DNA of 64,000 nucleotides from an uncultured bacterium (GCA_937935355.1 CALGYR010000100.1:3566-67565); one strand, 5' to 3'; positions 24,046 through 41,217 are shown, counted from the first letter of the stretch. Notes: generated by a model from the letters alone, not told the origin. Numbers and translations: made by a program.

Positions 24046-24189
24046 GGTCCGGCGCTCCTTTCGTGGCTCTGGGTCGATCGGTCCCGGCCGCCGGCGGGGC
24101 GGTCCGGGCGCGAGGCTTCGGCGGTCGTAACCGGCCCGTCGCGCCGGGTATTCCTATAAGGGCGGCCCTCTGCATGCGCAAGTGCGTTC

Positions 24190-25258: not shown

Positions 25259-26233
25259 GTGAAGGTCGAGCACGCCCTGGTCACCGGCGGCGCCGGGTTC
25301 ATCGGCAGCCATCTCTGCGAGCGGCTGCTGGCCTCCGGCTGCCGGGTGACTGCGGTCGACGACCTCTCCACCGGCTCGATCCGCAACGTGCGCGCGCTCG
25401 AGGGCAACCCGGACTTCCGCATCCTGGTGGGCTCGGCCGGCGACCGCGAACTGCTCCAGAGCCTGGCGGTCGGCGCCGACGCGGTTTTCCACCTGGCCGC
25501 GGTGGTCGGCGTGCGCAAGGTCATGGAGAGCTCGGTCGAGACCATCGAGAAGAATCTGCACACCACCGAGACGGTGCTGAAGGTCTGCAACCTGCTGCGC
25601 CTGCGGCTGGTGGTGGCCTCGACCAGCGAGGTCTACGGCGCCAACCCCCGGGCCTCGTTCCGCGAGGACGACGACTCGATCATCGGCACCAGCCGCCACC
25701 GGCGATGGTCCTACGCGGCCAGCAAACTGCTCGACGAGTTCCACGCCTACGCGTACTACCATTCGACGGCCCTGCCGGTGACCATCGTGCGGCTCTTCAA
25801 CACCATCGGGCCGCGCCAGGTGGGGCACTACGGCATGGTCGTGCCCACCTTCGTGGGCCAGGCCCTGGCCGGCGCGCCCATCACCGTCCACGGCGACGGC
25901 AGCCAGCGGCGCTGCTTCACGGCGGTCGCTGATGTCGTCCGATGCCTGGCGGAACTGGCCGCGCGCGAGGAGACCGCCGGGCAGGTCTACAATATCGGCG
26001 GCACCCAGGAGATCTCGATCATGGACCTGGCCAACAAGGTCAAGGCCATGACCGGGAGCGCCTCGCCGATCGTCACGAAGAGCTACGCCGAGGTCTACGG
26101 CGAGAACTTCGTGGACATGGAGCGCCGCGTGCCGGACGTCTCCAAGCTCCGCTCGGCCATCGGCTTCGCGCCGGAGACGGGGCTCGAGGACATGCTCCGG
26201 ACGGTGATAGAGCACCTCAGGGCCGGGCAGTAG
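25259..26233 (+). CDS. NAD-dependent epimerase/dehydratase (SDR family, UDP-sugar epimerase/decarboxylase-like)
   Basis: 'VTGGAGFIGSHLCERL' Rossmann motif and the catalytic 'YAASK' motif. Confidence 0.85.
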   Translation: MKVEHALVTGGAGFIGSHLCERLLASGCRVTAVDDLSTGSIRNVRALEGNPDFRILVGSAGDRELLQSLAVGADAVFHLAAVVGVRKVMESSVETIEKNLHTTETVLKVCNLLRLRLVVASTSEVYGANPRASFREDDDSIIGTSRHRRWSYAASKLLDEFHAYAYYHSTALPVTIVRLFNTIGPRQVGHYGMVVPTFVGQALAGAPITVHGDGSQRRCFTAVADVVRCLAELAAREETAGQVYNIGGTQEISIMDLANKVKAMTGSASPIVTKSYAEVYGENFVDMERRVPDVSKLRSAIGFAPETGLEDMLRTVIEHLRAGQ

Positions 26234-26299
26234 GCTTCTCGCTACCTCCGGGCCCGGCCAGCCAATCCGGGATGCCTTTGAATGGCACTTCCGTAAGCC

Positions 26300-26420
26300 C
26301 TGCGAACGGCGAACCGCAGAATGTCGAATGTCGAAGTCAGAATTACGAACGACGTGGAGTGGCCGGGAGTTGCCACTTCGACATTCGTCATTCGGTGTTC
26401 TGCGGTTCTGCGGTTTGCTG
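26300..26420. repeat. family B hairpin (AATGTCGAA-type arms)
   Basis: 'gaaccgcagaatgtcgaatgtcgaag-N42-cttcgacattcgtcattcggtgttctgcggttc'. Confidence 0.7.
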
Positions 26421-27035
26421 TGGGTTCGCCAGGGGGCTGGCATGGCCTAGGGAAGCGCCATTCGGGCGCATCCCTAACGGCTCTTGCTCCGCGCGGATGC
26501 CGCCATCCGCTTCAGGGTGCTCCCACGCCTCTGCAACTCTCGCCATCCTGGCCACCAGCCAGTCCTGGACCGGCTTGGGGAGAGACGCCCCGAAGCAGAT
26601 GCTGCCCTGCGGGCTCGTTATCGCGATGCGATGGATCGGAGGTCCAAGGCCATGTCGTCTGGCCCCATAGTGGTCGACGACCTTTTCTGCTCGCACGTCC
26701 GTACCGTGAAGGCGCTGAACGCCGGATCCCCAGATGCTCCGCGTTCTGATTTCCACCATGCCCCGGCACATGGTCAGATCGTAGACCAGCGTGCTCAGCC
26801 GCAGGGCGTGGATGTCCAGAGCCGCCGTAAGCGTCCCGAATACCCCGACCAGCAGGTAAGCCAGAAGCGGGTTGCTTTGCCTGCTCGCGATAACGCCGGA
26901 CGCCAGAAACAGCATCGGAGGCGTTGCGACGGCGCCTGCGCAGAGCAGGACCCAGGGCTTCTTTCCGGTGAGGCGCACGGCCAAACAGCCAGGGCTTTCC
27001 TCGAGGACAGCGGCGTGTCTGCCGATCGCGTTCAT
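26388..27035 (-). CDS. hypothetical membrane protein
   Basis: Several hydrophobic helices. It sits in a lower-GC patch. The start is placed at the internal Met 'MNAIGRH'. Confidence 0.4.
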   Translation of the reverse strand: MNAIGRHAAVLEESPGCLAVRLTGKKPWVLLCAGAVATPPMLFLASGVIASRQSNPLLAYLLVGVFGTLTAALDIHALRLSTLVYDLTMCRGMVEIRTRSIWGSGVQRLHGTDVRAEKVVDHYGARRHGLGPPIHRIAITSPQGSICFGASLPKPVQDWLVARMARVAEAWEHPEADGGIRAEQEPLGMRPNGASLGHASPLANPQQTAEPQNTE

Positions 27036-27389
27036 GTCCCCGCCACCTGTTGCACTGCCCCCGTCTTGCCGGCCATTGTGCGTCTGGCGGCATGTTCTAT
27101 CCGCGCCTCTCAGACCTGCAAGTGACGGTGGATGTATCGGACCGGCGCCCATGCGGCATATGCCGCCGCTGAGGCTTTACGTTACGGTTACTCGCCGGGA
27201 GGCGGAGAAGACGGTTCCAGATTCGCTGGGAGGCACTTGCGACGCCGGCGACGGCGGGGAGAATGCCGGCAGGAGGTCGTCATGGCCAACGGACTTCGTC
27301 TCGCGACTATGTGGGTCGGGGAGATCGCAGCCCGGCCGGTGACGCTGGTCGTTCCGGCGAAGAAAGAGAAGCAGGCACCATAGCAGCCC

Positions 27390-28115
27390 GTGCCCGAAGA
27401 GCAGAGCGAACTTGATGCGGTTCCCGGGGCGGTGTTCCCCGGAGAAGACGGAGGTCGTTCGGTGGATGGCCAGCTTGGCGTTCCGCGAAGTGAGCCCTCT
27501 GAGGACGGGCGTGGCGTGCTGAGGAAGGGCCCTTGGGGGCGGGTAGGATGTGTGCTGGGGGCTGGCGTCTTCGTCTGCCTGCTGGCTGTCGGCGGACTCG
27601 GGGCCTGGCGGCATCTTGACGCGGAGGCGTGCAGGGGCAATCTTGAGATGATAGGCCGGGCCTGCCTTAGCTATGCGGCGGAGAATGGTGGGAGCTTCCC
27701 AGCCGACTGGGATGGTGTTCTTTCCAAGCGACGGTTTCCGGAGCCATTTGTGTGCCCTTCTGACCCGCGGGGATATGGCTACGCTGTGAAAGACAACCGA
27801 GTGGTTCCAGACCGCGTGAGCTATGAGTATGTGGCCGGGCTCAGGCTGGACAAGTCGAGGGAACTCGTGGTGGCATACGACAGGCATGGCAACCACCGGG
27901 GAGGTCGCAACGTGCTCATGATCTCCGGTGGTTCGGTGGAGGTTGTCTTCTGGCCCACGGCGAGAAATGGGGAGTTGGAGACCAGGCTGGCCGAGCAGAG
28001 GGCGCGGAGTTCGAACGACCGCGATGCCCCGGCTGTTCCAGCCAAGTCGCACGCGACCGGGCCGGACGTCGAATTAACCAATGACGTGGGGCATGGCAAG
28101 CCCCTCTCGCCCTGA
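27390..28115 (+). CDS. DUF1559-like (planctomycete pseudopilin-like) protein
   Basis: 'CRGNLEMIGRACLSYAAENGGSFP' matches the DUF1559 'C.NL+.IG.A...Y...G.FP' motif. The C-terminal 'HRGGRNVLMISGGSVEVV' matches the H-X9-DG(SV) box. The N-terminus is hydrophobic. Confidence 0.55.
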   Translation: MPEEQSELDAVPGAVFPGEDGGRSVDGQLGVPRSEPSEDGRGVLRKGPWGRVGCVLGAGVFVCLLAVGGLGAWRHLDAEACRGNLEMIGRACLSYAAENGGSFPADWDGVLSKRRFPEPFVCPSDPRGYGYAVKDNRVVPDRVSYEYVAGLRLDKSRELVVAYDRHGNHRGGRNVLMISGGSVEVVFWPTARNGELETRLAEQRARSSNDRDAPAVPAKSHATGPDVELTNDVGHGKPLSP

Positions 28116-28157
28116 GCCGGTGCCTTCTCGCGGAGAGAATGATGCCCCGGCAGCATC

Positions 28158-28355
28158 GTGAGCCTGCGCACCGAGCAGGTCGAGGCCGTTGAACGTTTGG
28201 GGGGGCAGGAACTGGTCGCGTTGGGAGAGATCGGACCGGCTGCCGCGCAGGCCATTCCGGACATCGAGCCGCTCCTGGAGGACCGGGATCAGGAAGTTCG
28301 CGCGGCCGCCGCCGATGCGCTTATGAAGATCCGGCGCGAGGCGATTGACGAGTAG
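28158..28355 (+). pseudogene. orphan HEAT/PBS-lyase repeat fragment
   Basis: The 65 aa sequence 'LGEIGPAAAQAIPDIEPLLEDRDQEVRAAAADALMKI' is a single HEAT-like repeat without a surrounding protein. Confidence 0.3.
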
Positions 28356-28525
28356 CGCTCCAACTCCGCGCAGCGATCTGATCGTGCTATCAGCCTGCCG
28401 TTTGCGCTCTGAACTAGAGTGCTGGTTCGGGGAGTGTAACGCCCGTCGATCGCCGCCGAATTCATAAGTGACTGTATATTGGGCCGTTCCGTGCCCATTC
28501 GTCTGTCTTCACCCTTCCATCGGAA

Positions 28526-28540
28526 TACCCCCGCCGGGTA
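28526..28540. promoter_or_regulatory. predicted CsoR operator (TACCC-N5-GGGTA pseudo-palindrome) upstream of YHS/csoR/cusCBA
   Basis: 'TACCCCCGCCGGGTA' lies about 90 bp upstream of the YHS gene. A near-identical box occurs at 37431. Confidence 0.5.
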
Positions 28541-28631
28541 CCGGGTTGACACCACAAGGAGGAGAGGGCCGGTCCGGAGGCCGTCCCTGCGATCATCCTG
28601 GACAGAGGTGCACCGGTGAGGAGGAGCTGAA

Positions 28632-29054
28632 ATGTTCAGCCTGCAGTTGAGGTCTCTGGGAGTGATGGCGTTGGGCTTGGCCTTCTCGTTTGCGGCCGTC
28701 GCCGCCGAGGGAGACAAGCCTCAGGCGGGCGACCAGGACGGGGCGAAGAAGGAGGTCAAGGTCCAGACCACCTGTCCGGTCATGGGCAACAAGATCAACA
28801 AGGACATCTACGTCGATCACGACGGCAAACGGGTCTACCTGTGCTGCAAGGCCTGCGTGGCCGCCTTCAACAAGGACCCCGGGAAGTACATCAAGAAGCT
28901 CGAGGACGAGGGCGTGACCATCGAGAAGGCCCCGGTGCAGACGGAGTGCAAGGACAAGTGCGATGCCAAGGACGGCAAGGCCGGAGGCGGCTGTTGCTCG
29001 GACGCCGGCAAGACCGTCAAGGAAGGAGCGGGGGAAGGCGGGTGCTGCAAGTAG
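28632..29054 (+). CDS. secreted YHS/TRASH-domain metal-binding protein with Cys-rich C-terminus
   Basis: Signal peptide, YHS-like 'CPVMGNKI.....YVDHDGKRVYLCCKACVAAFNKDPGKY', and a C-terminal 'GGGCCS...GGCCK' motif. Confidence 0.7.
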   Translation: MFSLQLRSLGVMALGLAFSFAAVAAEGDKPQAGDQDGAKKEVKVQTTCPVMGNKINKDIYVDHDGKRVYLCCKACVAAFNKDPGKYIKKLEDEGVTIEKAPVQTECKDKCDAKDGKAGGGCCSDAGKTVKEGAGEGGCCK

Positions 29055-29156
29055 CGCCCGCGCGGTTCTACGGGCGGTTCTCCCCGCAGAGAACCGCCCG
29101 TAGAACTTCCGCCGCAGAAGGCGTCATGAACCCCGGTCCGGGTACGGAGGCTGAAT

Positions 29157-29441
29157 ATGCTTGACGACGACCTCTCACGCGAGCTCGACCGCCGGCTCCT
29201 CAAGATCGAGGGCCAGGTCCGCGGCATTCGCAAGATGATCGAAGATCATCGCTACTGCGTGGACCTGCTCGACCAGCTGGCCGCGGCGCGCGCGGGCTTG
29301 GGCGCGGTCGGCCAGGGGATACTCAGGAACCACATCGAGACCTGCGTGGCCGCGGCCCTGTCCGGGACTAACCAGGCCGACCGGCAGGCGAAGGTCGAGG
29401 AACTGGTCAGGCTCTTCCCGCGGTTCTGCCGCGGAGGCTGA
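29157..29441 (+). CDS. csoR: CsoR/RcnR family metal-sensing transcriptional repressor
   Basis: 94 aa, 'LKIEGQVRGIRKMIEDHRYCVDLLDQL...H..C'. This is the CsoR fold with a Cys-His-Cys ligand set. Confidence 0.8.
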   Translation: MLDDDLSRELDRRLLKIEGQVRGIRKMIEDHRYCVDLLDQLAAARAGLGAVGQGILRNHIETCVAAALSGTNQADRQAKVEELVRLFPRFCRGG

Positions 29442-29483
29442 GGAGGATTCCAATGCGCCGAGGGCACTGCGACCGGAGGGGAA

Positions 29484-29640
29484 CTGCGGCACCGAACGTT
29501 CAACATGCAACACGCAACATTCGACACGCAATGAATCAGCGGAAGGGGCCGATTCATCGGTTTCATTCCTCAAGATCGTGCTCCTTCCCTGATTTGCTCT
29601 GTATGTTGCATGTTGCATGTTGGACGTTGCGTGTTCGTCT
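29484..29640. repeat. family B-like hairpin (CAACATGCAAC arms) with an inner stem-loop
   Basis: 'gaacgttcaacatgcaacacgcaacattcgacacgcaatgaatc...gattcat...tgttgcatgttgcatgttggacgttgcgtgttcg'. Confidence 0.7.
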
Positions 29641-29671
29641 CTTCCCCGAAATATCCTGCAGGGCCATCGCT

Positions 29672-31096
29672 GTGCGCACTTCGAGGACTGGTCTCGCTCT
29701 GCTCGCGCTTCCCCTGGCCCTGGCGGCTGGCTGCGCGCCTGACGGTTCGCCGGGCGCTTCGCCAGGCGTTGGGATCGGCGGTTCGGCGGGGACCCCGCCC
29801 TTCAGCAGGGCCGGGATCGTTCGCGACCGGGGGATGGGGGGCGAGGTTCGCGCCGAGCCGCCCCTCGCGACGCTCGACGACTATCTGGCGTATGCGGCGA
29901 TCCACAACCCCGGCCTGGAGGCGGCCTACTACCGCTGGCAGGCGGCGACCGAGCGCGCCCCGCAGGCCCGGAGCCTTCCCAATCCGGTGCTCAATTACGG
30001 GTACTACATCCGCTCGGTCGAAACCAAGGTCGGCCCGCAGCGCGAGCGAGTGGGCCTGTCCCAGGCCATTCCATGGCCGGGCAAGCTCATCGCCGCCTCG
30101 GCGGTGGCGGACAGAGAGGCCGAGGCCGCGCGGCTCGGCTACGAGGCGGCCAAGTTCGAGCTCTTCTATCGGGTCAAGGACGCCTGGTACGAGTACTACT
30201 ACCTCGGGCGTCAGACCCAGGTGACGGAGGCCGTCGCCGACCTGGTCCGGAAGATGGAGGAGGTCGTCAGGGCCAGGTACGCGGCCGGCGCTGCCGGGCA
30301 TCCGGACCTGATCCGCGCGCAGGTTGAGCTCGGACGGGTCGAGGACCGCGTCAGGAGCCTGCGCGACCTGCGCTCCGCGGCGGCCGCCAGGCTCAACGCC
30401 GTGCTCGGCCGTCCGACGGACGCGCCGGTGCCCTGGCCCGGGGAGGCGCCGGCCGTCTCCAGCCTCGCGGCATCGGACGAGTCGCTGGTCGCCGAAGTCC
30501 TGGAGCGCAACCCGGAACTCGCCGCGCTCGGCGCCCAGGTCGAGCGGGACCGCAGGGCGGTGAGCCTCGCCAGGCAGAACTACTGGCCGGACATCACCGT
30601 CGGCGGCGAGTACATCTTCACCGACAAGGCCAGGAGCACCATGCCGATCGAGGACAACGGCAAGGACCCGGTGGTGGTGAGCGTGGGTCTGAGCCTGCCC
30701 ATCTGGTTCGGGCGCTACCGGGCGGCCGAGCGCGAGGCCCGCGACCGGCTGCGCGGCACGGAGCTCTCGCGCGAGGACCGGGGCAACGCGATCGCCGCCC
30801 GGCTCAAGCGCGTCCTCTTCGAACTGCACGACGCCGAGCGCAAGGCCGAACTCTACGGCCGGACGCTCATACCCCGGGCCGAGGATTCCCTGGCGGCGAA
30901 TGAGGCGGCCTTCAAGGCCGGCCGCACGGACTTCTCGGCCCTGCTCGACGCCGAGCGGGTGCTGCTCGACTTCCGGCTGAGCTACGAGCGGGCGGTGGCC
31001 GGCCACGCCCAGCGCCTCGGCGAGCTCGAGATGCTGCTGGGCCGGCCGGTGGCCACGGATGCGGTGTCCGACGCTCCCAAGGAGGTGGGCCGATGA
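29672..31096 (+). CDS. cusC: TolC-family outer membrane efflux protein (CusC-like)
   Basis: Lipoprotein-like 'LALLALPLALAAGC' followed by two OEP repeats. A GTG start at 29672 is chosen because the upstream part of the ORF is occupied by a hairpin repeat. Confidence 0.75.
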   Translation: MRTSRTGLALLALPLALAAGCAPDGSPGASPGVGIGGSAGTPPFSRAGIVRDRGMGGEVRAEPPLATLDDYLAYAAIHNPGLEAAYYRWQAATERAPQARSLPNPVLNYGYYIRSVETKVGPQRERVGLSQAIPWPGKLIAASAVADREAEAARLGYEAAKFELFYRVKDAWYEYYYLGRQTQVTEAVADLVRKMEEVVRARYAAGAAGHPDLIRAQVELGRVEDRVRSLRDLRSAAAARLNAVLGRPTDAPVPWPGEAPAVSSLAASDESLVAEVLERNPELAALGAQVERDRRAVSLARQNYWPDITVGGEYIFTDKARSTMPIEDNGKDPVVVSVGLSLPIWFGRYRAAEREARDRLRGTELSREDRGNAIAARLKRVLFELHDAERKAELYGRTLIPRAEDSLAANEAAFKAGRTDFSALLDAERVLLDFRLSYERAVAGHAQRLGELEMLLGRPVATDAVSDAPKEVGR

Positions 31097-32949
31097 TCGA
31101 CTTCAGAAGAATTCTGGTGAGCGGCCGGTTCCGCCTGGCATTCGCCATCGCCGGGGTGCTGCTTCTCGGCGGCCTGGCGACGATCGTTCTGCACGAGTCC
31201 GGCGGCAGCCATGCGGCCGAATCGTCCGTGGCCGGCAAGGCCGGGGCGCAGTACTACACCTGCGGCATGCACCCCTGGGTGATTCTGCCGAAGCCCGGCG
31301 ACTGCCCGATCTGCCACATGAAGCTCGTGCCCCTCGATCCCGCGAAGTTCACCGGCCAGATCGCCATCGACCCGGTGGTCGTCCAGAACATCGGCGTCCG
31401 AGTCGCGCCGGCGACGGTCGGAGAGGTGACCCGCACCGTCCGGACGGTCGGTTCGGTCGAATACGACGAGACCCGCGTCCGGGACGTGAACCTCAAGATC
31501 GCCGGCTGGATCGAGAAGCTGCACGTCGACTCCCTCGGTCAGCCGGTGAAGAAGGGCGAGCCGCTCCTCGAGATCTACTCGCCCGAGCTCTACTCGGCCG
31601 AGGCCGAGTATCTCGCGGCCTTTCGGCGCGCCAAGGCCGGGCAGAACGCGGACAGGGCCGACAGGATGGACGCCGAGTTGCTCGCGGCCGCCCGGAAGCG
31701 CCTGGAGTACTTCGACGTCCCGGCCGGCGAGGTCCGCGAGCTCGAGCGGACCGGCGAGGTCAGGAAGGCCCTGACCATCCGCAGCCCCTTCGACGGCGTG
31801 GTCGTCGAGAAGATGGCCCAGGAGGGCATGAAGGCCGATGCCGCCATGCGCCTCTACCGCATCGCCGACCTCTCGACCGTCTGGGTGCAGGCCGCGGTCT
31901 ACGAGCAGCAACTGCCCTACGTCCGGGAGGGCCAGGCGGCGGCCATGACGCTGCCCTACCTGCCCGGCCGGAAGTTCGACGGCAAGGTGGCCTACGTCTA
32001 CCCCTACCTGGACAGGAAGCTCCGCCAGGTGAACGTGCGCCTGGAGTTCGCGAACCCCGATCTCACGCTCAAGCCCGGGATGTTCGCGAGCGTCGAGTTG
32101 CGCGGCGCCGAGGCGAAGCAGGGCCTGCTCGTCCCGCGCGAGGCGGTGATCGACACCGGCGAGCGGCAGGTGGCCTTCGTGAGCCTGGGCAAGGGGAGGT
32201 TCGAGCCCCGCGACGTGAAGCTCGGCGTCGAGGCCGACGGCGGCAAGGTCGAGATCCTCGAGGGCCTGAAGCCCGGCGAGATGGTGGTCACCAGCGGCCA
32301 GTTCCTGCTCGACAGCGAGTCGCGCCTGCGCGAGGCGCTGGCCAGGATGATGGCGGGGACGACGGGAGGGGTGGAAGGTGGAGGGTGGAAGGTGGAAGGT
32401 TCCGCCTCGCAAGCCTCCACCATCCACCATCCACCTTCCACCCTGCTTGTCCTTCCGGCGCCCGCCGGCAAGGCGCTCGCCGGGATGCTCGACGGCTACT
32501 TTGCGATCGGTGCGAAGCTGGCCGACGACACCGCTGCGGGCATCGCCGAGCCCGCGCGACAAGTGGCCTCGAGCGCCGAGGCTCTGCTCAAGGTGGAGAT
32601 CCCCGGCGACCCGCACTTCTGGCACAAGCACATGGAGGCCGGCGAGGTCCGCGCCAGGGCGCTGGAGCTGGCCGGCGCCGGCGATCTGGCCAAGGCCCGC
32701 TCGGTCTTCGCCGACCTGGGCACGGCGCTCGAAAAGCTGCTCAAGGCGACGGGCGTCCCCGCTGGCTACGGGAAGGAGGTCTACGAACTCCATTGCCCGA
32801 TGTATCGGGAGGAGCAGGGCGGCGCCGTCTGGCTGCAGACCAACCAGGATGTCACCAACCCATACTACGGCAAGGCCATGCTGAACTGCGGGGACGTGGT
32901 GGGGGCTGTCCCCTCCCACGCCGCTCCGGACGGGAACGGGAAGAAGTAG
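31093..32949 (+). CDS. cusB: efflux RND periplasmic adaptor (CusB-like) with N-terminal heavy-metal-binding motif and C-terminal DUF3347-like domain
   Basis: 'YYTCGMHPWVILPKPGDCPICHMKL' (HMBD), then an MFP barrel/lipoyl region and a C-terminal 'YYGKAMLNCG'. A GGTGGAAGG hairpin repeat sits in frame in the linker at 32368-32444. Confidence 0.75.
   Translation: MIDFRRILVSGRFRLAFAIAGVLLLGGLATIVLHESGGSHAAESSVAGKAGAQYYTCGMHPWVILPKPGDCPICHMKLVPLDPAKFTGQIAIDPVVVQNIGVRVAPATVGEVTRTVRTVGSVEYDETRVRDVNLKIAGWIEKLHVDSLGQPVKKGEPLLEIYSPELYSAEAEYLAAFRRAKAGQNADRADRMDAELLAAARKRLEYFDVPAGEVRELERTGEVRKALTIRSPFDGVVVEKMAQEGMKADAAMRLYRIADLSTVWVQAAVYEQQLPYVREGQAAAMTLPYLPGRKFDGKVAYVYPYLDRKLRQVNVRLEFANPDLTLKPGMFASVELRGAEAKQGLLVPREAVIDTGERQVAFVSLGKGRFEPRDVKLGVEADGGKVEILEGLKPGEMVVTSGQFLLDSESRLREALARMMAGTTGGVEGGGWKVEGSASQASTIHHPPSTLLVLPAPAGKALAGMLDGYFAIGAKLADDTAAGIAEPARQVASSAEALLKVEIPGDPHFWHKHMEAGEVRARALELAGAGDLAKARSVFADLGTALEKLLKATGVPAGYGKEVYELHCPMYREEQGGAVWLQTNQDVTNPYYGKAMLNCGDVVGAVPSHAAPDGNGKK
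32368..32444. repeat. family A hairpin (GGTGGAAGG arms) inside the cusB linker
   Basis: 'ggtggaaggtggagggtggaaggtggaagg-N17-ccaccatccaccatccaccttccacc'. Confidence 0.75.
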
Positions 32950-32953
32950 TCCC

Positions 32954-35900
32954 ATGATCGGCAAGCTCATCGACTGGTGCGTCCGCAACCGCCTTCTGGT
33001 GCTGCTCCTGACGGCGCTGTTGGCCGTCGGAGGCATCTGGTCGGCCAGCCACATCACCATCGATGCCATCCCGGACCTCTCCGACGTGCAGGTGGTGATC
33101 CGTACGGAGGCGGCGGGCCAGGCCCCGCAGATCGTCGAGGACCAGATCACCTATCCGCTGACCACGGCGATGCTGGCCGTGCCCAAGGCCAAGGTGGTGC
33201 GCGGCTACAGCATGTTCGGCACCAGCTTCGTCTACATCATCTTCGAGGACGGCACCGACCTGTACTGGGCGCGGAGCCGCGTCCTCGAGCAGCTCAGCAC
33301 CGTTTCGGCGAAGCTCCCGGCCGGCGTGAGCCCGCAACTCGGGCCGGACGCCACCGGGGTGGGATGGATCTACGAGTACGCGCTCGTCACCGGCAGGTAC
33401 TGTCCGGACCATCCGAACGGCGCCTGGCACGACCCCGTGACGGACAAGTGGTACGCCGATCCCGGGAAAGCCCCCGGCGACGAGGCTGTGCAGAAACGGC
33501 TCGTCCATCACCGGGTCTTCCAGGAGAGCCGCGATGCCTGCCCTCTCGACGGCAAGCCTCTCAAACCGAGCGACCAGAGCCTGGCCAACCTCCGCAGCCT
33601 CCAGGACTGGTATCTGCGCTACGAGCTGACCGCGGTCGACGGGGTCAGCGAGGTGGCCTCGCTCGGCGGCTTCGTCAAGCAATACCAGGTGGTGGTCGAC
33701 CCGGTGAAGCTGCTGGCCTTCCACATGCCGCTCGGCAAGGTCAAGTCCGCGATCCAGCGCTCGAACCTCGACGTTGGCGGCCGGCTCGTGGAGATGAGCG
33801 AGACCGAATACATGGTTCGGGGCGTGGGCTACCTCGGCAGCCTCTCTGACCGGGAGGTCGTCGTCGCCCGCGCCGCAGGCAAGTCCGTCGGGGAGCTGCG
33901 CACCGCCAGGGCGCTCGATGAGCTGGGCAGGGTCGCGCTCGGCGCCACGGAGAGCGGATCTCCCATCCGGCTCTCGGACGTGGCCGAGGTGCGCCTCGGC
34001 CCGGACATCCGCCGCGGCGTGGCCGACTGGAACGGCGGGGGCGAGACCGTCGGCGGGATCGTGGTGATGCGCTTCGGCGAGAACGCCCGCGCGACCATCG
34101 ACAACGTCCGCCGGAAGCTCGCCGACCTCGAGAAGGGCCTGCCCGCCGGCGTGGCGGTCGAGACCGGCTATGACCGCAGCGACCTGATCGACCGCGCGGT
34201 GGATACGCTGCGGCACACGCTCTTCGAGGAAATCGCCATCGTCGCGCTGGTGTGCATTCTGTTCCTGCTCCATGCCCGGAGCGCGCTGGTGGCCGCCTTC
34301 GTGCTGCCGACGGGAGTGCTGGCCACGCTTGCGGTCATGCACCTGCTGGGCATCAATGCCAACATCATGAGCCTGGGCGGCATCGCCATCGCCATCGGCG
34401 TGATGGTGGACAGCTCCATCATCATGGTGGAGAACGCCCACAAGCACCTCGACTACGAGAGACAACGCGTGGCCGAAGGGGGCGGGCCCCGCCCGCGGTC
34501 CGCGGTCATAGCCGAGGCGGCCCGGGAGGTGGGCCCGAGCCTCTTCATCGCGCTGCTCATCATCGTGGTCAGCTTCCTGCCCATCTTCGTGCTGGGCGAG
34601 CAGTCCGGGAGGCTCTTCAAGCCCCTGGCCTACACCAAGACCTTCGCGATGATCGGCGGCGCGGTGCTGGCCGTGACCATCATCCCGGTGCTCATGACCT
34701 TCTTCGTGTCGGAGCGGACGCTGCCCGTGGAAATGAGCCGGCGCAGGCGCTGGGCCACCTACGCGGGCATCGTCTTCGTCCCCGCCCTGGTGTTGGCGGC
34801 GATCCCCTTGCCGCAGCTGGACGGATACCGGCTCCCGCTGGCTCTGGGCTGGGCCGTCCTCTCCGCCCTGGCGATCCTGCCGCAGCGGCTCCCCTCGGAG
34901 GAGCGGAACCCGATCAGCCGCTTCCTGGAGGCGGTCTACAACCCGCTATTCGCGCTGGTGATGCGCTTCCGCTGGGCGGCGATGATCGGGGCGGTCGTGC
35001 TGGTGGCCGTGACATGGGTCCCCTTCAGCCGTCTGGGCAGCGAGTTCATGCCGCCGCTCGAAGAGGGCGACCTGCTCTATATGCCCACGACCGACCCGGG
35101 CATCAGCATGGGCAAGGCCCGCGAGCTGCTCCAGCAGACCGACGCGCTCATCAAGAGCTTCCCGGAGGTCGAGAAGGTCCTGGGCAAGGCCGGCCGGGCC
35201 GAGACCGCCACCGACCCGGCGCCGCCGAGCATGCTCGAGACCACCATCACCCTCCGGCGCGACAAGGACCTCTGGCGACAGGTGCCGGCCGGGCGCTTCT
35301 TCGCCTCCTGGCCGGGGTTCCTGCGCGGGCCGCTCTCGCACATCTGGCCGCTCAACCGGCCGATCACGACCGACGAACTGGTCTACGGCTACGAGCTGCC
35401 GGTGGCCGGCCGCGAGCCGCTCCACGTCCCCGGGCTCAACGAGGCGGTCCAGATCCCGGGGCTGACCAACTCCTGGACCATGCCGATCAAGACGCGCATC
35501 GACATGCTCTCCACCGGCATCAAGACCCCGGTGGGCGTCAAGGTCATGGGGCCGGACCTGGGGACGCTGGGCCGGATGGCCGACCGGATCGCCCAGGTGC
35601 TGAAGACCTCCGAGGGCACCGGCGCCTACACGGTGAGCGCCTTCCCGGAGAAGACCGTCGGCGGCAATTACCTCGACGTGCGCATCGACCGCGACGAGAT
35701 CGGCCGCTACGGCCTGACCGTGGGCGACGTCCAGGACGTGGTCATGAGCGCCCTGGGCGGCGCCAACGTCACCTACACGGTGGAGGGGCTGGAGCGCTAT
35801 CCGGTGAACCTGCGTTATCCCTCCGAGTTGCGCGACCGACGGGACGCGCTCGCCGGCATGCTGGTGGCCACGCCCTCCGGCGCGCAGGTGCCGCTGGGGC

Positions 35901-36688
35901 AGCTCGCCGAGCTCCAAATCCACAAGGGCGCGCCCATGGTCAAGAGCGAGAACGCGCGGCTGACCAGTTGGGTCTACGTGGACATCGCCGGGATCGACGT
36001 GGGCACTTACGTGGCCAACGCCCAGCGGGCCGTCGCCGAGAAGGTCGATCGGCCCGAGGGCTACTCCATCGTCTGGTCCGGACAGTACGAGTACATGCAG
36101 GCAGCCAGGCAGGACCTGATCGTCGCCGGAATACTTGCGCTGGCGGCCATAATCCTGCTGCTCTACGTTTCGACCCGGAGCTGGCTGCGGACCTTGCTAG
36201 TGATTCTGGCCGTGCCCTTCAGCCTGGTGGGGGCGGTCTGGCTGCTCTACCTGATGGACTACAACCTGTCGCTCGCGGTGGTGGTGGGCCTGATCGCGCT
36301 GGCCGGGCTCGACGCCGAGACCGGGGTGGTCATGCTGCTCTACCTCGACACCAGCTTCGCGCGCTTCAAGTCCGAGGGGCGGATGCGTGACGCCAAAGAC
36401 CTGTGGCGCGCCGTCCACGACGGGGCGGTCAAGCGCATCCGGCCCAAGATGATGACGGTGGTCTCGACGGGCGCCGGCCTCCTGCCGCTGCTGTGGGCCT
36501 CGGGCGCCGGCGCCGACACCATGCGGCGGCTGGCCGTGCCCATGATCGGCGGGCTGGCCACGAGCTTCCTGATGGAGCTCCTCATCTACCCGGCGATCTA
36601 CTACACCGCCAAGAGGATGGCCCTTGCCGGTCAGTTACGGGACAAAGGTGCGCGCACCGGCGAGGCACTGCCCTCCTCGGCGCAGTAA
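32954..36688 (+). CDS. cusA: heavy-metal efflux RND permease (CusA/CzcA family)
   Basis: 1244 aa, 12 TM HME-RND topology, starting 'MIGKLIDWCVRNRLLVLLLTALLAVGG'. Confidence 0.9.
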   Translation: MIGKLIDWCVRNRLLVLLLTALLAVGGIWSASHITIDAIPDLSDVQVVIRTEAAGQAPQIVEDQITYPLTTAMLAVPKAKVVRGYSMFGTSFVYIIFEDGTDLYWARSRVLEQLSTVSAKLPAGVSPQLGPDATGVGWIYEYALVTGRYCPDHPNGAWHDPVTDKWYADPGKAPGDEAVQKRLVHHRVFQESRDACPLDGKPLKPSDQSLANLRSLQDWYLRYELTAVDGVSEVASLGGFVKQYQVVVDPVKLLAFHMPLGKVKSAIQRSNLDVGGRLVEMSETEYMVRGVGYLGSLSDREVVVARAAGKSVGELRTARALDELGRVALGATESGSPIRLSDVAEVRLGPDIRRGVADWNGGGETVGGIVVMRFGENARATIDNVRRKLADLEKGLPAGVAVETGYDRSDLIDRAVDTLRHTLFEEIAIVALVCILFLLHARSALVAAFVLPTGVLATLAVMHLLGINANIMSLGGIAIAIGVMVDSSIIMVENAHKHLDYERQRVAEGGGPRPRSAVIAEAAREVGPSLFIALLIIVVSFLPIFVLGEQSGRLFKPLAYTKTFAMIGGAVLAVTIIPVLMTFFVSERTLPVEMSRRRRWATYAGIVFVPALVLAAIPLPQLDGYRLPLALGWAVLSALAILPQRLPSEERNPISRFLEAVYNPLFALVMRFRWAAMIGAVVLVAVTWVPFSRLGSEFMPPLEEGDLLYMPTTDPGISMGKARELLQQTDALIKSFPEVEKVLGKAGRAETATDPAPPSMLETTITLRRDKDLWRQVPAGRFFASWPGFLRGPLSHIWPLNRPITTDELVYGYELPVAGREPLHVPGLNEAVQIPGLTNSWTMPIKTRIDMLSTGIKTPVGVKVMGPDLGTLGRMADRIAQVLKTSEGTGAYTVSAFPEKTVGGNYLDVRIDRDEIGRYGLTVGDVQDVVMSALGGANVTYTVEGLERYPVNLRYPSELRDRRDALAGMLVATPSGAQVPLGQLAELQIHKGAPMVKSENARLTSWVYVDIAGIDVGTYVANAQRAVAEKVDRPEGYSIVWSGQYEYMQAARQDLIVAGILALAAIILLLYVSTRSWLRTLLVILAVPFSLVGAVWLLYLMDYNLSLAVVVGLIALAGLDAETGVVMLLYLDTSFARFKSEGRMRDAKDLWRAVHDGAVKRIRPKMMTVVSTGAGLLPLLWASGAGADTMRRLAVPMIGGLATSFLMELLIYPAIYYTAKRMALAGQLRDKGARTGEALPSSAQ

Positions 36689-36711
36689 CCGGAGTGAATA
36701 GGGGCGCGAAA

Positions 36712-37326
36712 GTGAGCGACTGCTGCGCTTCGTGTGTCGGGGAACTGGAGAAACTCCAGGGCCGCCAGCGCTCGACGCTGCGCGTCGTGCTGGCCATCAA
36801 CGCGGTCATGTTCGCCGTGGAGGCGGCGGCCGGCATCCTGGCGGGCTCGACCGCCCTCTTGGCCGACTCGCTGGACATGCTGGGCGACGCGCTGGTCTAC
36901 GGCTTCAGCCTGTACGTGGTGGGCCGCAGCCAGTCCTGGAAGGCGGCCGCGGCCCTGGCCAAGGGCGCGGCAATGGCGCTCTTCGGCCTCTTCGTCCTGG
37001 GGGAGGCGCTCTGGAAGCTGTTCCACCCCGAGGTGCCCGCCCACCTCGCGATCGGCGGCGTCGGGCTTCTGGCGCTGGCCACCAACCTGGTCTGCCTGGG
37101 CCTCCTGTGGCGTCATCGCGCGGAGGACATCAACATGCGCTCGGTGTGGCTGTGCTCGCGCAACGACATCGTCGCCAACGTGTCCGTGCTGGTCGCGGCG
37201 CTCGGGGTGTGGGCCTTCCGGTCGCAGTGGCCGGACCTGCTGATCGGCGTGGGCATCGCGGCGCTCTTCATCGCCTCGTCGGTCCGCGTGCTGCGCGAGG
37301 CGTGGAGGTGTCGCGCTCCGCGCTGA
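36712..37326 (+). CDS. cation diffusion facilitator-like membrane transporter (TM domain only)
   Basis: The GTG at 36712 is the first start after the cusA stop (36688). Six TM helices carry CDF-like 'LLADSLDMLGDAL' and 'HRAEDINMRSVWLCSRNDIVANV'. Confidence 0.6.
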   Translation: MSDCCASCVGELEKLQGRQRSTLRVVLAINAVMFAVEAAAGILAGSTALLADSLDMLGDALVYGFSLYVVGRSQSWKAAAALAKGAAMALFGLFVLGEALWKLFHPEVPAHLAIGGVGLLALATNLVCLGLLWRHRAEDINMRSVWLCSRNDIVANVSVLVAALGVWAFRSQWPDLLIGVGIAALFIASSVRVLREAWRCRAPR

Positions 37327-37430
37327 TCCGGGTCTGGTCGCAGCGGCCGGTTGCCTTCGGGGCGTCGATCCCGGGCTGTGCCGATGCGCCCGCCATGCCT
37401 CCTCCATGTCTTTGTCGGCTGCCGCCGGAA

Positions 37431-37445
37431 TACCCCGGCCGGGTG
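37431..37445. promoter_or_regulatory. second predicted CsoR operator
   Basis: 'TACCCCGGCCGGGTG' lies about 55 bp upstream of the HMBD-protein ATG. The flanks are shared with the 28526 box ('GGAATACCCC.GCCGGGT'). Confidence 0.45.
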
Positions 37446-37498
37446 GTGGGTTTTGCCCACGAAGGGGACGGCTCGGGCGGCAAGGAGGAGGTGCTGCC

Positions 37499-37786
37499 AT
37501 GAAAGCGAAAAACCGACCGATCGGGTGGCTGTGGCTTTTCGCGGCCGGATGCGTGGTGCTGGCCGTGGGATTGGCTGCCGGCCATATGCTGCTGGCCGAC
37601 AACCAGCTGGAGCGGCCCAAACACGCCGCGCCGTTGTGGAACGCTCCGGAGAGCACGCAGTCCTGGCGCTGCCCGGCCCACGTGGAGGATAGGCTCTCCG
37701 GCCCGGGCAAGTGCCCCAAGTGCGGCATGGACCTGACCTTCCCGAAGCCCGACGAAGCGGAAGCCCGGGACTGCGCCGCGCGGTGA
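37499..37786 (+). CDS. membrane-anchored heavy-metal-binding domain (HMBD) protein
   Basis: RBS 'aaggaggaggtg', TM 'WLWLFAAGCVVLAVGLAAG', and 'WRCPAHVEDRLSGPGKCPKCGMDL' (CPxH...CPxCGM motif, as in the CusB N-terminus). Confidence 0.65.
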   Translation: MKAKNRPIGWLWLFAAGCVVLAVGLAAGHMLLADNQLERPKHAAPLWNAPESTQSWRCPAHVEDRLSGPGKCPKCGMDLTFPKPDEAEARDCAAR

Positions 37787-37967
37787 CCTGGGGTGACATG
37801 GCATCCCGCGGAAAAGGTTTCCGGTGCGACGCCAATCCTGAGGCATGGCAAGCATCGGATTGAAGCCTCATTCTTGACGCGCCGCCGGCAGTCGATACCA
37901 TGCGACCGTCCGGCCGAGGCCCTTCGCGGGCCATTTCCCAGGCGCCGTCAAGGAGGGGAACAACGCG

Positions 37968-39632
37968 ATGTCAGATGGTGGTCCGACCGCCGATTCTAAC
38001 CGCCACGGCTCCGTCCGCGGCCGGGACGCCGTCAGGCGCGTGCTTCAGGACGCCGCCGCGCGCGACCCGAACAGCATCGATCCACAGAAGCTTCTGGGTG
38101 CGGTCCTGGCGGGCTCGGACGATCCGGGGGGCGATCTGGCCTGGTTGGTGGCCTACGACCTGGACAAGGGCGTCTGCGACGTGGGAGTCCCTCTGCTTCA
38201 CTTCGTGGCCACCGATAAGGATGCCCTGGCCGCCGCCGGCGCCGGCAAGGTCCGGAAGTCCGCCAGGACCGCCTTGCTCAAAGCCTTGCGCGACCGGCGG
38301 GTGCCCGATGACCGGAAGCTGCCTCTGGCGCCGCTTTTCGAGATGCTCGGGGGCCGGCTCTCGGAGGGCGACTATCGCTCCTTCTTCAGCGACTACGATG
38401 CCGTCGTTCGCAGCATAGCCAGACGGGTCGCCTCCTCCGTGATGGACACTCCGGAAGGCATCGAAGGCGTGTTCGAAGCGATCGGACTGATGGAGACGGG
38501 GCGCGGCGCCCCCTCCGAGCGGGACGTCGCCCAGCTTCTCCAGTTGCATGGGGACGCTCGCGAGGCCAACCCGGCCGCCGCGGCCGCGCTGCTGGGCGCT
38601 CTCGTGGCGCTCGAGATCGAGCACGGCCGGACGGGCGAGGAGACCGCCGCCATGGTCGACCTGCTGGCCAAGGACGCCTCCCCGCGCGCCGCGTGGTGCA
38701 TTGACGAGCTGGGCCGCTGGCCGGCGGCCGGCCCGATCGGCGCGCGGTGCCGGGCGCTCGCCGGCGCTCTCCGGGAAAAGGGCGTGCTCCCCGGGGGCGT
38801 GCGCCCGCCCGAGTTCGTGTCCGGCCTGTTCAGCGCCGTGGACGGGGCGGGCTCGCGCAACCTGACGATCATCACCAAGTCGGCGGACGGCGGCCTGGAT
38901 GGCCTGGTGTTGATGCCCAACGATCAGGTCGGCATCAAGGACGCCTGGTGCGCCTTCGGCGATGGGCGGGAGGCGGAGGCTCGCTTCAAGTCCGCCAAGG
39001 AGATCGTCGCGGTCCGGTGCTCCATGGAACTGGCGCGCGAGCTGGTGGCCGACGCCCTGGCGATCCACGAGCAGACCCGGCGGCCCCCGCCCGGCCGGTT
39101 CTTCATCTATCGTCCGGTCTTCGGCGCGGAGCCCATTGTCCCGCGCCGACGCAGTCCGGATCTGGGCGCCTATGGAGTCCCCGGGCCGGAGGCGGCGTCT
39201 CCCGTGTCCGAGCGCGAGGCCTTCGACATGCTCGACTGCCCCGGCTACCGCGAGCTGTGGTTCTGCTCCGACTTCGTCTATGAAACCATCTCGAAGATGA
39301 CGCGTGGAGGGCGACAGCGGCTCTCCGACATCCAGCTCGAGAAGCTCATGGTCGAGGTCCTCCCGCAAGAGAGGGAACGGCTGCTCTCGCGGCTGGCGGC
39401 GAACCTGGAGATTCTCGCTTTGGCCGGGAAGGCGTCCAGGCGGGAGAACCGGCTGGCTTTCCGGGTCTGGCGCGAGTTGTCGAAGGGCGACGCCAACCCG
39501 GCCGCCATCCCCTTCCTCCGGGCGCTGTGCCGGCGCACGGCGGAGATCGTGGGATATAACCTCGCCATGGGCTTCCGCAGCCAGGCTCAGGCCAACCGGG
39601 TGGTGGAGGAGATGGAGGAGGGGAGGGAGTAG
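37968..39632 (+). CDS. hypothetical protein (554 aa, no recognisable domain)
   Basis: RBS 'ggaggggaacaacgcg' before the ATG. Same strand as the rtcR-like gene, 85 bp upstream of it. Confidence 0.55.
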   Translation: MSDGGPTADSNRHGSVRGRDAVRRVLQDAAARDPNSIDPQKLLGAVLAGSDDPGGDLAWLVAYDLDKGVCDVGVPLLHFVATDKDALAAAGAGKVRKSARTALLKALRDRRVPDDRKLPLAPLFEMLGGRLSEGDYRSFFSDYDAVVRSIARRVASSVMDTPEGIEGVFEAIGLMETGRGAPSERDVAQLLQLHGDAREANPAAAAALLGALVALEIEHGRTGEETAAMVDLLAKDASPRAAWCIDELGRWPAAGPIGARCRALAGALREKGVLPGGVRPPEFVSGLFSAVDGAGSRNLTIITKSADGGLDGLVLMPNDQVGIKDAWCAFGDGREAEARFKSAKEIVAVRCSMELARELVADALAIHEQTRRPPPGRFFIYRPVFGAEPIVPRRRSPDLGAYGVPGPEAASPVSEREAFDMLDCPGYRELWFCSDFVYETISKMTRGGRQRLSDIQLEKLMVEVLPQERERLLSRLAANLEILALAGKASRRENRLAFRVWRELSKGDANPAAIPFLRALCRRTAEIVGYNLAMGFRSQAQANRVVEEMEEGRE

Positions 39633-39717
39633 GCCCGCGAGGGACCTCGGATGCCCGTGTAGCCGTCCGGGGAAAGATCGTTGTGAAACCATAAAGCCTC
39701 TTGTACACTTCCGCGCC

Positions 39718-41217
39718 ATGCGCGAAGTGCTTTTCGCCTGGATAGGCAATACGGACCTGAAGGCGGCGGCCGGCCAGACGGATGTTGGACTCGGCCCGAT
39801 CGGCCAGGCGGTCAAGGCGAAGAGCTACGACAAGCTCGTCCTAATCAGCAACTACCCCAAGGCGCAGGCCCAGGAGTACGCCAAGTGGCTATCCGGGCAG
39901 ACCAGGGCCGAGACGCTCGTCCTCCACGAGAAGCTGAGCAGCCCCACGAACTTCGGCGAGATCTACCTGGCGGCCAGGAAGGCGGTCGATGCTGAACTTG
40001 CCTCCGCCCCCGGCGGCGGGGCCCGCCCGACGTTTCACCTGAGCCCCGGCACTCCGGCCATGGCCGCGGTCTGGATCATTCTGGCCAAGGCGTTCTACGG
40101 CGCGGAACTCATCCAGTCGTCCCGCGAAGAGGGGGTCGTGACGGCCTCCGTGCCTTTCGACCTCTCCGCCGAGTTCATCCCCGACCTGCTGCGGAGGCGG
40201 GACGAGGCCATAGAGCGGCTCGCGAGCGCCACGCCGCCGGAGGCCCCGGAGTTCGCCGACATCGTCCACCGGTGCGAGGAGATGAAGCGCGTCGTGGCCA
40301 AGGCGCGCCGCGTGGCCGTCCACGGCGTGCCCGTGCTCATCGAGGGCGAGTCCGGGACCGGCAAGGAGCTCCTGGCCCGCGCCATCCACGACGCAAGTCC
40401 GCGGCGCGATAAGCCTTTCGTCGCCATAAACTGCGGGGCCATCCCGGCGGGCCTGGTGGAGTCGGAGCTTTTCGGCCACGTGAAGGGCGCCTTCAGCGGA
40501 GCCACGGCCGACCGCCAGGGCCGCCTTGAGGACGCCGATGGCGGCACCGTCTTCTTGGACGAGGTCGGCGAGCTTCCGGCCGACGCGCAGGTCAAGCTCC
40601 TGCGCGTGCTCGAGACCGGGGAGGTGACCCCGGTCGGCTCCGGCAAGACCGTCGAGCTCGACGTGCGGGTGCTCGCGGCGACCAACCGGGACCTCATGGC
40701 CGAGGTGACTGCCGGCCGCTTCCGCGAGGACCTCTTCTACCGGCTGGCGGTGGCGGTGCTGTTCCTGCCCCCGCTGCGGGCCAGGAAGGGCGACGTTGGC
40801 CTTCTGATCGACAGGCTGCTCGATCAGGTCGGGAAGGAGCTTCCCGAGGCCGGCAGCAAGAAGCTTTCTGCGGGCGCAAGAAAGCTTATGCTGGCCCACC
40901 CCTGGCGCGGCAACGTCCGGGAACTGCTCAACACTCTGCGGCGGGCGGCGATCTGGTCCGCCGGCGAGGTCATCGACGCCGACGAGATGCGCGAGGCGCT
41001 CCTGAGCGCCGGCGCCGCGCAGGGGACGGAGGTGCTCGGCCAGCCGCTCGGGAACGGCTTCAACCTTCCGGAAACGCTGGGTTTGGTCGCGCGGCACTAC
41101 CTGGAGCGGGCGCTCCAGGAGTCCGGTGGCAACAAGACCAAGGCGGCCGAGCTGCTCGGGCTGCCCAGCTACCAGACGCTGACCAACTGGCTCAAGCGGT
41201 ACGGGGTTGAGGGATGA
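39718..41217 (+). CDS. sigma-54-dependent transcriptional activator with N-terminal CARF-like (RtcR-type) sensor domain
   Basis: AAA+ sigma-54 domain: 'VLIEGESGTGKELLARAIH', GAFTGA-like 'GHVKGAFSGA', 'FREDLFYRL', and a C-terminal Fis HTH. The N-terminal 'HLSPGTPAMAAVWIILAKAFYGAELIQSS' aligns with E. coli RtcR 'HITTGTHVAQICWFLLAEARYLPARLIQSS'. Confidence 0.85.
   Translation: MREVLFAWIGNTDLKAAAGQTDVGLGPIGQAVKAKSYDKLVLISNYPKAQAQEYAKWLSGQTRAETLVLHEKLSSPTNFGEIYLAARKAVDAELASAPGGGARPTFHLSPGTPAMAAVWIILAKAFYGAELIQSSREEGVVTASVPFDLSAEFIPDLLRRRDEAIERLASATPPEAPEFADIVHRCEEMKRVVAKARRVAVHGVPVLIEGESGTGKELLARAIHDASPRRDKPFVAINCGAIPAGLVESELFGHVKGAFSGATADRQGRLEDADGGTVFLDEVGELPADAQVKLLRVLETGEVTPVGSGKTVELDVRVLAATNRDLMAEVTAGRFREDLFYRLAVAVLFLPPLRARKGDVGLLIDRLLDQVGKELPEAGSKKLSAGARKLMLAHPWRGNVRELLNTLRRAAIWSAGEVIDADEMREALLSAGAAQGTEVLGQPLGNGFNLPETLGLVARHYLERALQESGGNKTKAAELLGLPSYQTLTNWLKRYGVEG

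Follow-up and report, generated by a model that had tools for sequence, protein, structure and literature searches.

Genes of the island and their predicted regulator

The stretch of DNA analysed here, 64,000 nucleotides (nt) from an uncultured bacterium (GCA_937935355.1, CALGYR010000100.1:3566-67565; hereafter the window), carries a compact island of seven genes on its + strand. These encode, in order, a secreted YHS-domain protein, the repressor CsoR, the pump components CusC, CusB (with a heavy-metal-binding domain, HMBD) and CusA, a short transporter of the cation diffusion facilitator (CDF) family and a membrane HMBD protein. All seven assignments, made in an original prediction from the DNA sequence, were borne out by Pfam and NCBIfam. 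We infer two transcription units: unit 1 comprises YHS-csoR-cusC-cusB-cusA-CDF and unit 2 the HMBD gene alone, with predicted promoters at approximately 28522-28547 and 37427-37452, respectively. The earlier description of the island as bracketed by two CsoR operators is misleading in this respect, since the first operator box (box 1) heads a six-gene operon that includes csoR, and the second (box 2) would serve only the last small gene. We consider it probable (roughly 70%) that the island functions in copper/silver efflux and is controlled by its own CsoR repressor, through two promoters that each contain a predicted CsoR operator.

The regulator gene (csoR, 29157-29441, +) encodes a 94-residue protein of the CsoR/RcnR family (PF02583, Trns_repr_metal; E 5.2e-24), which scored 84.9 bits (cut-off 22.8). 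Residues C34, H59 and C63, together with Y33 and E82, were invariant in an alignment with 18 relatives. We take Y33 and E82 to be the equivalents of the second-shell tyrosine beside the first cysteine (Y35) and the helix-3 glutamate (E81) of Mycobacterium tuberculosis CsoR. The x-C-H-C fingerprint of Cu(I) sensors is present and the N-terminus (MLDDD) contains no histidine. The best solved relatives were the Cu-CsoR structures 4M1P and 4ADZ, with whose Cys, His and Cys ligands C34, H59 and C63 align. Mutagenesis of the Streptomyces lividans CsoR has identified R54, R57, Q81, R129 and R132 as operator contacts (PMC3902906). The corresponding residues here are R13, K16, Q40, R89 and R92, a single arginine having been replaced by lysine (K16). 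Among NCBIfam models, RicR ranked first (69.9 bits), followed by RcnR and FrmR, all under their cut-offs; as 69.9 bits is far below the RicR cut-off of 175, the island protein is not a RicR orthologue. Every sequence criterion tested identifies the protein as a Cu(I) sensor of the CsoR type.

The first gene of unit 1 (28632-29054, +) encodes a secreted YHS/TRASH protein of 140 residues; it bears a signal peptide, and GGCCK closes its Cys-rich C-terminus. Its Pfam YHS match (E 1e-5) lies below the cut-off; that of the orthologue in related locus L210 carries no such weak mark. Orthologues constitute the first gene in loci L001, L007, L210 and L211. The YHS proteins encoded first in these operons (28632-29054 here, 9579-9977 in L001 and 2-262 in L007) have a C-terminal GGCC-x in common (GGCCK, GGCCP and GGCCH), and in L001 and L191 the cusB gene region also ends in a YHS-like segment. 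A literature search linking copper to periplasmic YHS proteins produced very little, namely two unrelated papers. The protein is a candidate for a periplasmic metal-binding partner of the pump.

The cusC-type outer-membrane factor gene (OEP, E 8e-50) ends at 31096 (+) and probably begins with the GTG at 29672. This start yields MRTSRTGLALLALPLALAAGC, a classic lipoprotein signal ending in LAAGC. The mechanically called open reading frame (ORF) from 29453 adds approximately 75 junk-like residues, and the deposited start at approximately 29834 removes the lipoprotein signal. The cusB gene (31093-32949, +) encodes a membrane fusion protein of 618 residues (HlyD_D23, E 2e-81) with an N-terminal transmembrane segment and an HMBD at residues 54-80. 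It scored 185 bits against the NCBIfam CusB subfamily model (cut-off 390), and the similarity of its C-terminal extension to DUF3347 stayed below threshold (E 0.007). The cusA gene (32954-36688, +) encodes an HME-RND pump of 1244 residues that matches Escherichia coli CusA (3K07/3T51) with E 4.8e-300. Methionines within its DLLYMP, PSML and RIDMLSTGIK segments align with M573, M623 and M672, which form the Cu(I)/Ag(I) site of the E. coli pump. The island CusA is approximately 190 residues longer than its E. coli counterpart (relatives range from 1129 to 1295 residues), with insertions at 147-207, containing Cys and His residues, at 586-644, which is hydrophobic and possibly forms an extra transmembrane hairpin, and at 776-826.

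Unit 1 closes with the CDF gene (36712-37326, +; Pfam/NCBIfam), whose 204-residue product comprises the membrane domain only and an N-terminal CC..C motif. The single gene of unit 2 (37499-37786, +; Pfam) encodes a membrane-anchored HMBD protein of 95 residues, collinear with the N-terminal transmembrane and HMBD module of CusB (34% identity over 68 residues). Neither a CusF-type domain nor a kinase/response-regulator (CusRS) pair was detected among the island proteins; by position, the YHS protein and csoR occupy these roles.

Predicted operator boxes within promoter-like elements

Box 1 (TACCCCCGCCGGGTA, 28526-28540) and box 2 (TACCCCGGCCGGGTG, 37431-37445), both on the + strand, lie exactly where the original prediction had placed them, upstream of the first and last genes: box 1 is situated 92 nt before the ATG of the YHS gene and box 2 54 nt before that of the HMBD gene. 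The extended flanks that it had noted are likewise common to both boxes, but they probably do not belong to the operator, since they are shared by rubrerythrin promoters that lack the CsoR dyad. Each box forms part of a larger predicted promoter/operator element. Element 1 (28522-28547, +) consists of a -35-like GGAAT, box 1 in the spacer and a GGGTT with a -10-like GTT at 28545-28547. Element 2 (37427-37452, +) has the same order of GGAAT, box 2 and GGGTT.

The significance of these elements was assessed by counting matches across the window. The short 14-nt pattern alone is unremarkable once mismatches are allowed (five matches against 2.8 expected, with up to two mismatches). The shared 26-nt element GGAATACCCNNNNNSGGTRNNGGGTT, which can be written GGAATACCC-N5-SGGTR-NN-GGGTT, gave two matches against 0.01 expected with up to three mismatches, and none of 100 shuffles produced two. 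Additionally, ACCC-N4-6-GGGT occurs at just four sites in the 64 kb, three of which fall in the three intergenic regions of the island.

Type-2 CsoR operators are TAC-N9-GTA dyads that bridge G/C tracts, with the consensus ATATACCCCTNAGGGGTATAT, and each is bound by two tetramers (PMC3902906). Box 1, which can be written TAC-CCCCGCCGG-GTA, is a perfect example of this type, and it also resembles the RicR box, TACCCCGCTGGGTA (PMC3944814). Box 1 is very probably a working CsoR operator. For box 2, which follows the type-2 pattern apart from one arm, we rate the same function as somewhat better than an even chance.

The third of the intergenic sites revealed by the ACCC-N4-6-GGGT scan had gone unmentioned previously. 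This site 3 (AACCCCGGTCCGGGTA, 29129-29144, +) is a degenerate box-like palindrome of the form AAC-N10-GTA, which departs from TAC-N9-GTA and lacks the GGAAT/GTT flanks. It lies 13 nt before the csoR ATG and abuts the csoR ribosome-binding site. As a conserved autoregulatory operator it can be dismissed, because the YHS-csoR spacers of L001, L007, L210 and L211 do not contain it.

The box 1 element heads the operon in four independent related loci (L001/L130, L210, L213 and L131) whose CsoR proteins are 71-84% identical to that of the island. It precedes the YHS gene in L001/L130 and L210, and csoR directly in L213 and L131. An alignment of six cus-type sites, box 2 included, showed invariance at GGAATACCC, a single C, GGT and GGGTT and nowhere else; the surrounding sequence had diverged. 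The upstream neighbour in L001 and L131 is transcribed divergently, and hence for the family the element is not a terminator. Terminator function is rejected on this basis for the family as a whole and survives only as part of a minor alternative for box 2, considered below.

We also examined a more distant set of 68 distinct metagenomic csoR loci, encoding CsoR proteins of 38-54% identity. The dyad ACCC-N5-GGGT was present at 1.69 per kb in the 300 nt 5' of the 68 csoR genes and at 0.020 per kb elsewhere in the same loci, an enrichment of approximately 84-fold. In these loci a sigma70 promoter typically surrounds the box, which lies between its TTGACA and its TATAAT (for example TTGACAatACCCAGCGGGGGTATATAAT), the same operator-in-spacer geometry as proposed for the island. 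Furthermore, csoR is followed by genes for an outer-membrane factor, a membrane fusion protein and an RND pump in at least nine other loci (among them L132, L133, L138, L139, L142, L191, L203/204 and L208). The connection of csoR to a Cus-type pump is thus a recurrent arrangement, as several distant csoR genes precede pump genes of this kind.

The flanks of the boxes were found to have a wider distribution than the boxes themselves. The window contains three copies of GGAAT-N18-GTT where 0.56 would be expected, each of them 5' of a gene. The third copy, GGAATACCCGGCGCGACGGGCCGGTT (24129-24154, -), lies 84 nt 5' of a rubrerythrin gene (23524-24045, -); it retains the GGAATA-N17-GTT frame and is missing the right CsoR half-site. 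Upstream of rubrerythrin orthologues (61-74% identical) from four other lineages (L216, L218/L219, L220 and L221), GGAATA was kept in all four and the GTT at N18 in three, L216 retaining GGAATA only, with a variable spacer. Across 56 kb of related loci, no copy of GGAATA-N17-GTT was encountered outside the cus and rubrerythrin positions. The promoter consensus of the extracytoplasmic function (ECF) sigma factors sigmaH and sigmaR is GGAAT-N18-19-GTT, and GGAATA-N17-GTT is found at trxB1 and mshC of Corynebacterium glutamicum (PMC10012870); the spacing of the -35 GGAAT and -10 GTT in the island elements equals this consensus.

The three copies in the window, their conservation at rubrerythrin genes, their rarity in related loci and the match to the ECF consensus together indicate that the shared flanks probably belong to the promoter and not to the operator. 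We propose GGAATA-N17-GTT as a candidate alternative-sigma promoter signature common to the rubrerythrin and cus promoters, and the most economical reading would be that the CsoR dyad fills the spacer of an alternative-sigma promoter, as it does that of sigma70 promoters in distant relatives. The more specific assignment to an ECF-type, sigmaH/sigmaR-like promoter falls a little short of even odds in our estimation. A scan for sigma70 promoters returned none near box 1, and near box 2 its sole match lay approximately 430 nt downstream (37874-37901), ahead of the next gene. Two further candidates were discarded: GGGTTGACA, following box 1, does not qualify as a -35 element since its TTG is not kept across the six sites, and a sigma54 reading of GGTGGGTTTTGC at box 2 has the wrong spacing and is without counterpart at the other sites.

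A model for copper-responsive control and its alternatives

In the mechanism that we propose, the CsoR dyad (TACCC-N5-GGGTr) would fill the 18-nt spacer between GGAAT (-35) and GTT (-10) in both units. With apo-CsoR seated in this spacer, probably two tetramers at each site as in Streptomyces, RNA polymerase would be excluded. Cu(I), held by C34, H59 and C63, or Ag(I) would then free the promoter of CsoR, and de-repression would yield the CusCBA pump, the secreted YHS protein as a stand-in for CusF, the CDF transporter and CsoR itself (hence autoregulation), with the HMBD protein produced separately. The analysis shows the sequences, the identities of the genes, the ligand and DNA-contact residues, the conservation of box 1 with its flanks and the enrichment of the core box 5' of csoR genes; from these we infer CsoR binding, the response to copper, the promoter class and its sigma factor, the boundaries of the operons and the functions of box 2 and site 3. 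A more elaborate version of this scheme, which we regard as tentative and distinctly the less probable, invokes control by two inputs: with an oxidative or thiol-stress ECF sigma factor recognising GGAATA-N17-GTT, the frame also present at rubrerythrin, in promoters of the cus operon and the HMBD gene whose spacer holds a CsoR operator, the pump would require both an active sigma factor and the removal of CsoR by Cu(I), and the YHS/TRASH protein with its conserved C-terminal GGCC would be a periplasmic metallochaperone replacing CusF.

Several observations weigh against parts of this model. The strict ACCC-N5-GGGT dyad was found within 300 nt upstream in only 27 of the 68 distant csoR loci, and in L211, whose CsoR is 80% identical, no clear box was apparent in the 177 nt available 5' of the YHS gene. 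The strong hairpins within unit 1 (described below) could terminate transcription, which would call for further promoters, and none was found. Box 2 reads TAC-N9-GTG, so that GTA has become GTG in one arm, and symmetric swaps of each TAC/GTA base at both ends abolished binding by the S. lividans CsoR (PMC3902906). A homologue search with the 95-residue HMBD protein recovered only itself, and box 2 has no orthologous copies for comparison. With regard to the promoter, the sigmaH/sigmaR consensus was defined in Actinobacteria, a different phylum. No cognate sigma or anti-sigma factor was identified; the sole sigma-like gene in the window (19436-23410, a Kelch fusion) has no such motif upstream. 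Finally, three of the rubrerythrin sites also fit TTGACA-N17-TAGGAA, which would make GGAAT part of a sigma70 -10 region.

Such considerations give room to three other explanations. The 26-nt element might essentially be an ECF-type promoter in which the palindrome is incidental, expression being set by a stress sigma factor, with CsoR acting elsewhere or weakly. In keeping with this, GGAA in the left flank is invariant and is not mirrored in the right flank, and the rubrerythrin promoters keep GGAATA-N17-GTT without the right half-site. However, it is precisely in the spacer that the two groups of promoters part: CCC and sGGTr are invariant, or nearly so, in the six cus-type sites and variable at rubrerythrin. 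The same dyad is moreover enriched 5' of distant csoR genes in sigma70 promoters, it equals the published CsoR operator (PMC3902906), and csoR resides within the operon. An incidental palindrome is consequently improbable. The regulator might alternatively sense a signal other than Cu(I), such as nickel or cobalt, a persulfide or formaldehyde, with the boxes responding to that signal. The family is functionally diverse, weaker NCBIfam matches to RcnR and FrmR were obtained, and sulfur oxidation in Thermus is described as being under a CsoR-family member (PMC10318464). Against this stand the x-C-H-C set with its Tyr and Glu second shell, the absence of an N-terminal histidine, the best matches being to Cu-CsoR structures and RicR, and the nature of the target genes, namely CusA with its Cu/Ag methionine triad, the HMBD proteins and the YHS protein. 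We consider a non-copper signal to be highly improbable.

The remaining alternative concerns box 2 alone, which may be no working operator: it would then either be a decayed copy of element 1 or end the CDF gene as a weak hairpin terminator, leaving box 1 as the only functional site. A simple scan did flag box 2 as terminator-like (a 5-bp stem followed by GTGGGTTTTG), a further point that counts against the proposed model; the box is located 105 nt past the CDF stop codon, its arm is GTG and not GTA, and comparative support is lacking. Conversely, the hairpin is weak, and identical elements occur elsewhere in divergent promoter regions. All of the positions invariant across the six sites are kept in box 2 save for the A-to-G change, GGAAT and GGGTT stand at the exact spacing, and the gene that begins 54 nt downstream has a strong Shine-Dalgarno sequence and encodes a metal-binding domain supported by Pfam. 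On this evidence, the loss of box 2 as an operator is unlikely, and we retain the model of two CsoR-controlled promoters.

The predicted circuit was compared with characterised systems. With the CsoR-copZA systems of S. lividans, Bacillus subtilis and M. tuberculosis it shares the protein family, the Cys-His-Cys site and the DNA-contact residues, and likewise the dyad and spacing of box 1, an operator that overlaps the promoter and a csoR gene inside its own regulated operon (PMC3902906). It differs in its targets, which are a CusCBA RND pump, a YHS protein, a truncated CDF transporter and an HMBD protein in place of a P-type ATPase and CopZ. It also differs in its host, a diderm represented by a planctomycete-like metagenome-assembled genome (MAG), and in flanks of GGAAT and GGGTT instead of AT-rich repeats or sigma70 hexamers. 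In M. tuberculosis, the CsoR paralogue RicR represses several separate promoters that bear palindromes (PMC3944814). Both cases would involve one CsoR-family repressor acting at several promoters with near-identical palindromes (PMC3944814), a situation that is predicted here; the island promoters are 9 kb apart in one cluster, whereas those of RicR are dispersed genome-wide, and the target genes differ.

Relative to E. coli cusCFBA, CusA is very close and retains the methionine triad, and it is likewise accompanied by a CusB-type adaptor and an outer-membrane factor. The island is, however, without CusF and an adjacent CusRS, having instead a predicted cytoplasmic one-component repressor; its CusB adds an N-terminal HMBD and a C-terminal extension, and its CusA three insertions. 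Both cus-type elements and the rubrerythrin element match the actinobacterial sigmaH/sigmaR promoters exactly in sequence and spacing (PMC10012870), although the island belongs to a different phylum and the likeness is one of sequence only.

The repressor-operator logic is therefore already known, and what is different here is the target set (RND pump, YHS and HMBD proteins), the host phylum and the promoter context. CsoR is usually paired with CopA/CopZ in monoderms, and Cus pumps with the periplasm-sensing CusRS (PMC9470648). In the island and in at least a dozen metagenomic loci, a cytoplasmic CsoR would instead be wired directly to a tripartite envelope pump. No description of a CsoR-controlled cusCBA, or of CsoR in Planctomycetota, was found in the literature searched, the coverage of which was incomplete. 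If the model is correct, the CsoR regulon reaches RND efflux in diderm environmental bacteria, a defined cis-element becomes available for the prediction of copper regulons in Planctomycetota MAGs, and an uncharacterised secreted YHS protein emerges as a candidate CusF analogue; GGAATA-N17-GTT would likewise be among the few promoter signatures proposed for the phylum. Current understanding is not overturned by an arrangement that is fairly ordinary and unusual mainly in its promoter type.

Hairpins, repeats and genomic surroundings

Unit 1 contains two prominent hairpins. A perfect 18-bp inverted repeat without a T-run (29065-29106, +; RNA fold z -4.8) follows immediately after the YHS stop codon and is likely to be either a partial terminator or an mRNA-stabilising hairpin. 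Only 46 nt lie between it and csoR, an interval in which a promoter of its own for csoR would scarcely fit; the csoR-cus transcripts therefore likely arise by read-through from the box 1 promoter. The 230-nt spacer between csoR and cusC holds a long imperfect hairpin of approximately 140 nt (29490-29633, +; z -6.5) built from CAACATG-type 7-nt units. Both hairpins, like site 3, are absent in relatives (for the first, in L001, L007, L210 and L211), where the spacers between YHS, csoR and cusC measure approximately 20-90 nt. The hairpins may serve to set expression ratios within the unit.

Long hairpins with arms of tandem 7-nt units (GGTGGAA, CAACATG and GAATGTC) were observed at 32353-32459, 56395-56548, 29490-29633 and 26304-26408. 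The one at 32353-32459 (RNA fold -78.5 kcal/mol, z -6.8) lies in frame within cusB and encodes the linker GGVEGGGWKVEGSASQASTIHHPPST that precedes the C-terminal extension; two ORFs may have been fused here by the insertion of a repeat element. An Rfam search of 26-40 kb yielded no known RNA family, only sub-threshold miRNA-like matches, which exposed the hairpin inside cusB.

The window, placed on contig DAIPLX010000026.1 of the MAG GCA_036768975.1, has a G+C content of 68%. The closest named relative of the island CsoR (76% identity) is annotated as belonging to a Planctomycetota bacterium, and the ORF at 27390-28115 presumably resembles the DUF1559 proteins of planctomycetes, an impression gained by eye for an ORF in which a Pfam search gave no domain. 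The host is described as planctomycete-like on the basis of the name attached to this CsoR and of the DUF1559-like ORF. The 2.4 kb or so 5' of the island (26233-28632) is slightly lower in G+C (0.63-0.65) and contains weak or fragmentary ORFs of degraded appearance, and a 65-residue HEAT-repeat fragment is encoded at 28158-28355; the low-G+C, fragmentary character of this stretch suggests decay or rearrangement at the island border. Genes for a 554-residue protein and a sigma54-type activator lie on the 3' side, together with a type I restriction-modification system. The 554-residue ORF (within 37968-41217) has no Pfam or NCBIfam match and overlaps the start of the activator ORF (39304-41217) by approximately 330 nt. 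Neither an integrase nor a transposase was seen at the island and its surroundings. Relatives carry the same operon in different neighbourhoods, and for this reason island is a fair word.

A scan of GTDB genomes for GAATACCCCNGCCGGGT returned more than 119 matches, mostly due to chance and spread across many phyla. Among the matches listed, only L049 (Solirubrobacteraceae) and L091 were within approximately 100 nt of csoR, and L035 was approximately 1.5 kb away. In a Planctomycetaceae MAG (WRMR01000188.1; L021, 1872-2035), CTCGAATACCCCCGCCGGGTA, which equals the box 1 sequence, is repeated in about ten tandem units of 21 bp. This array is set in repeat-rich, low-GC DNA that is apparently non-coding; no csoR lies within 8 kb of it, and it represents either a coincidence or an operator-like satellite.

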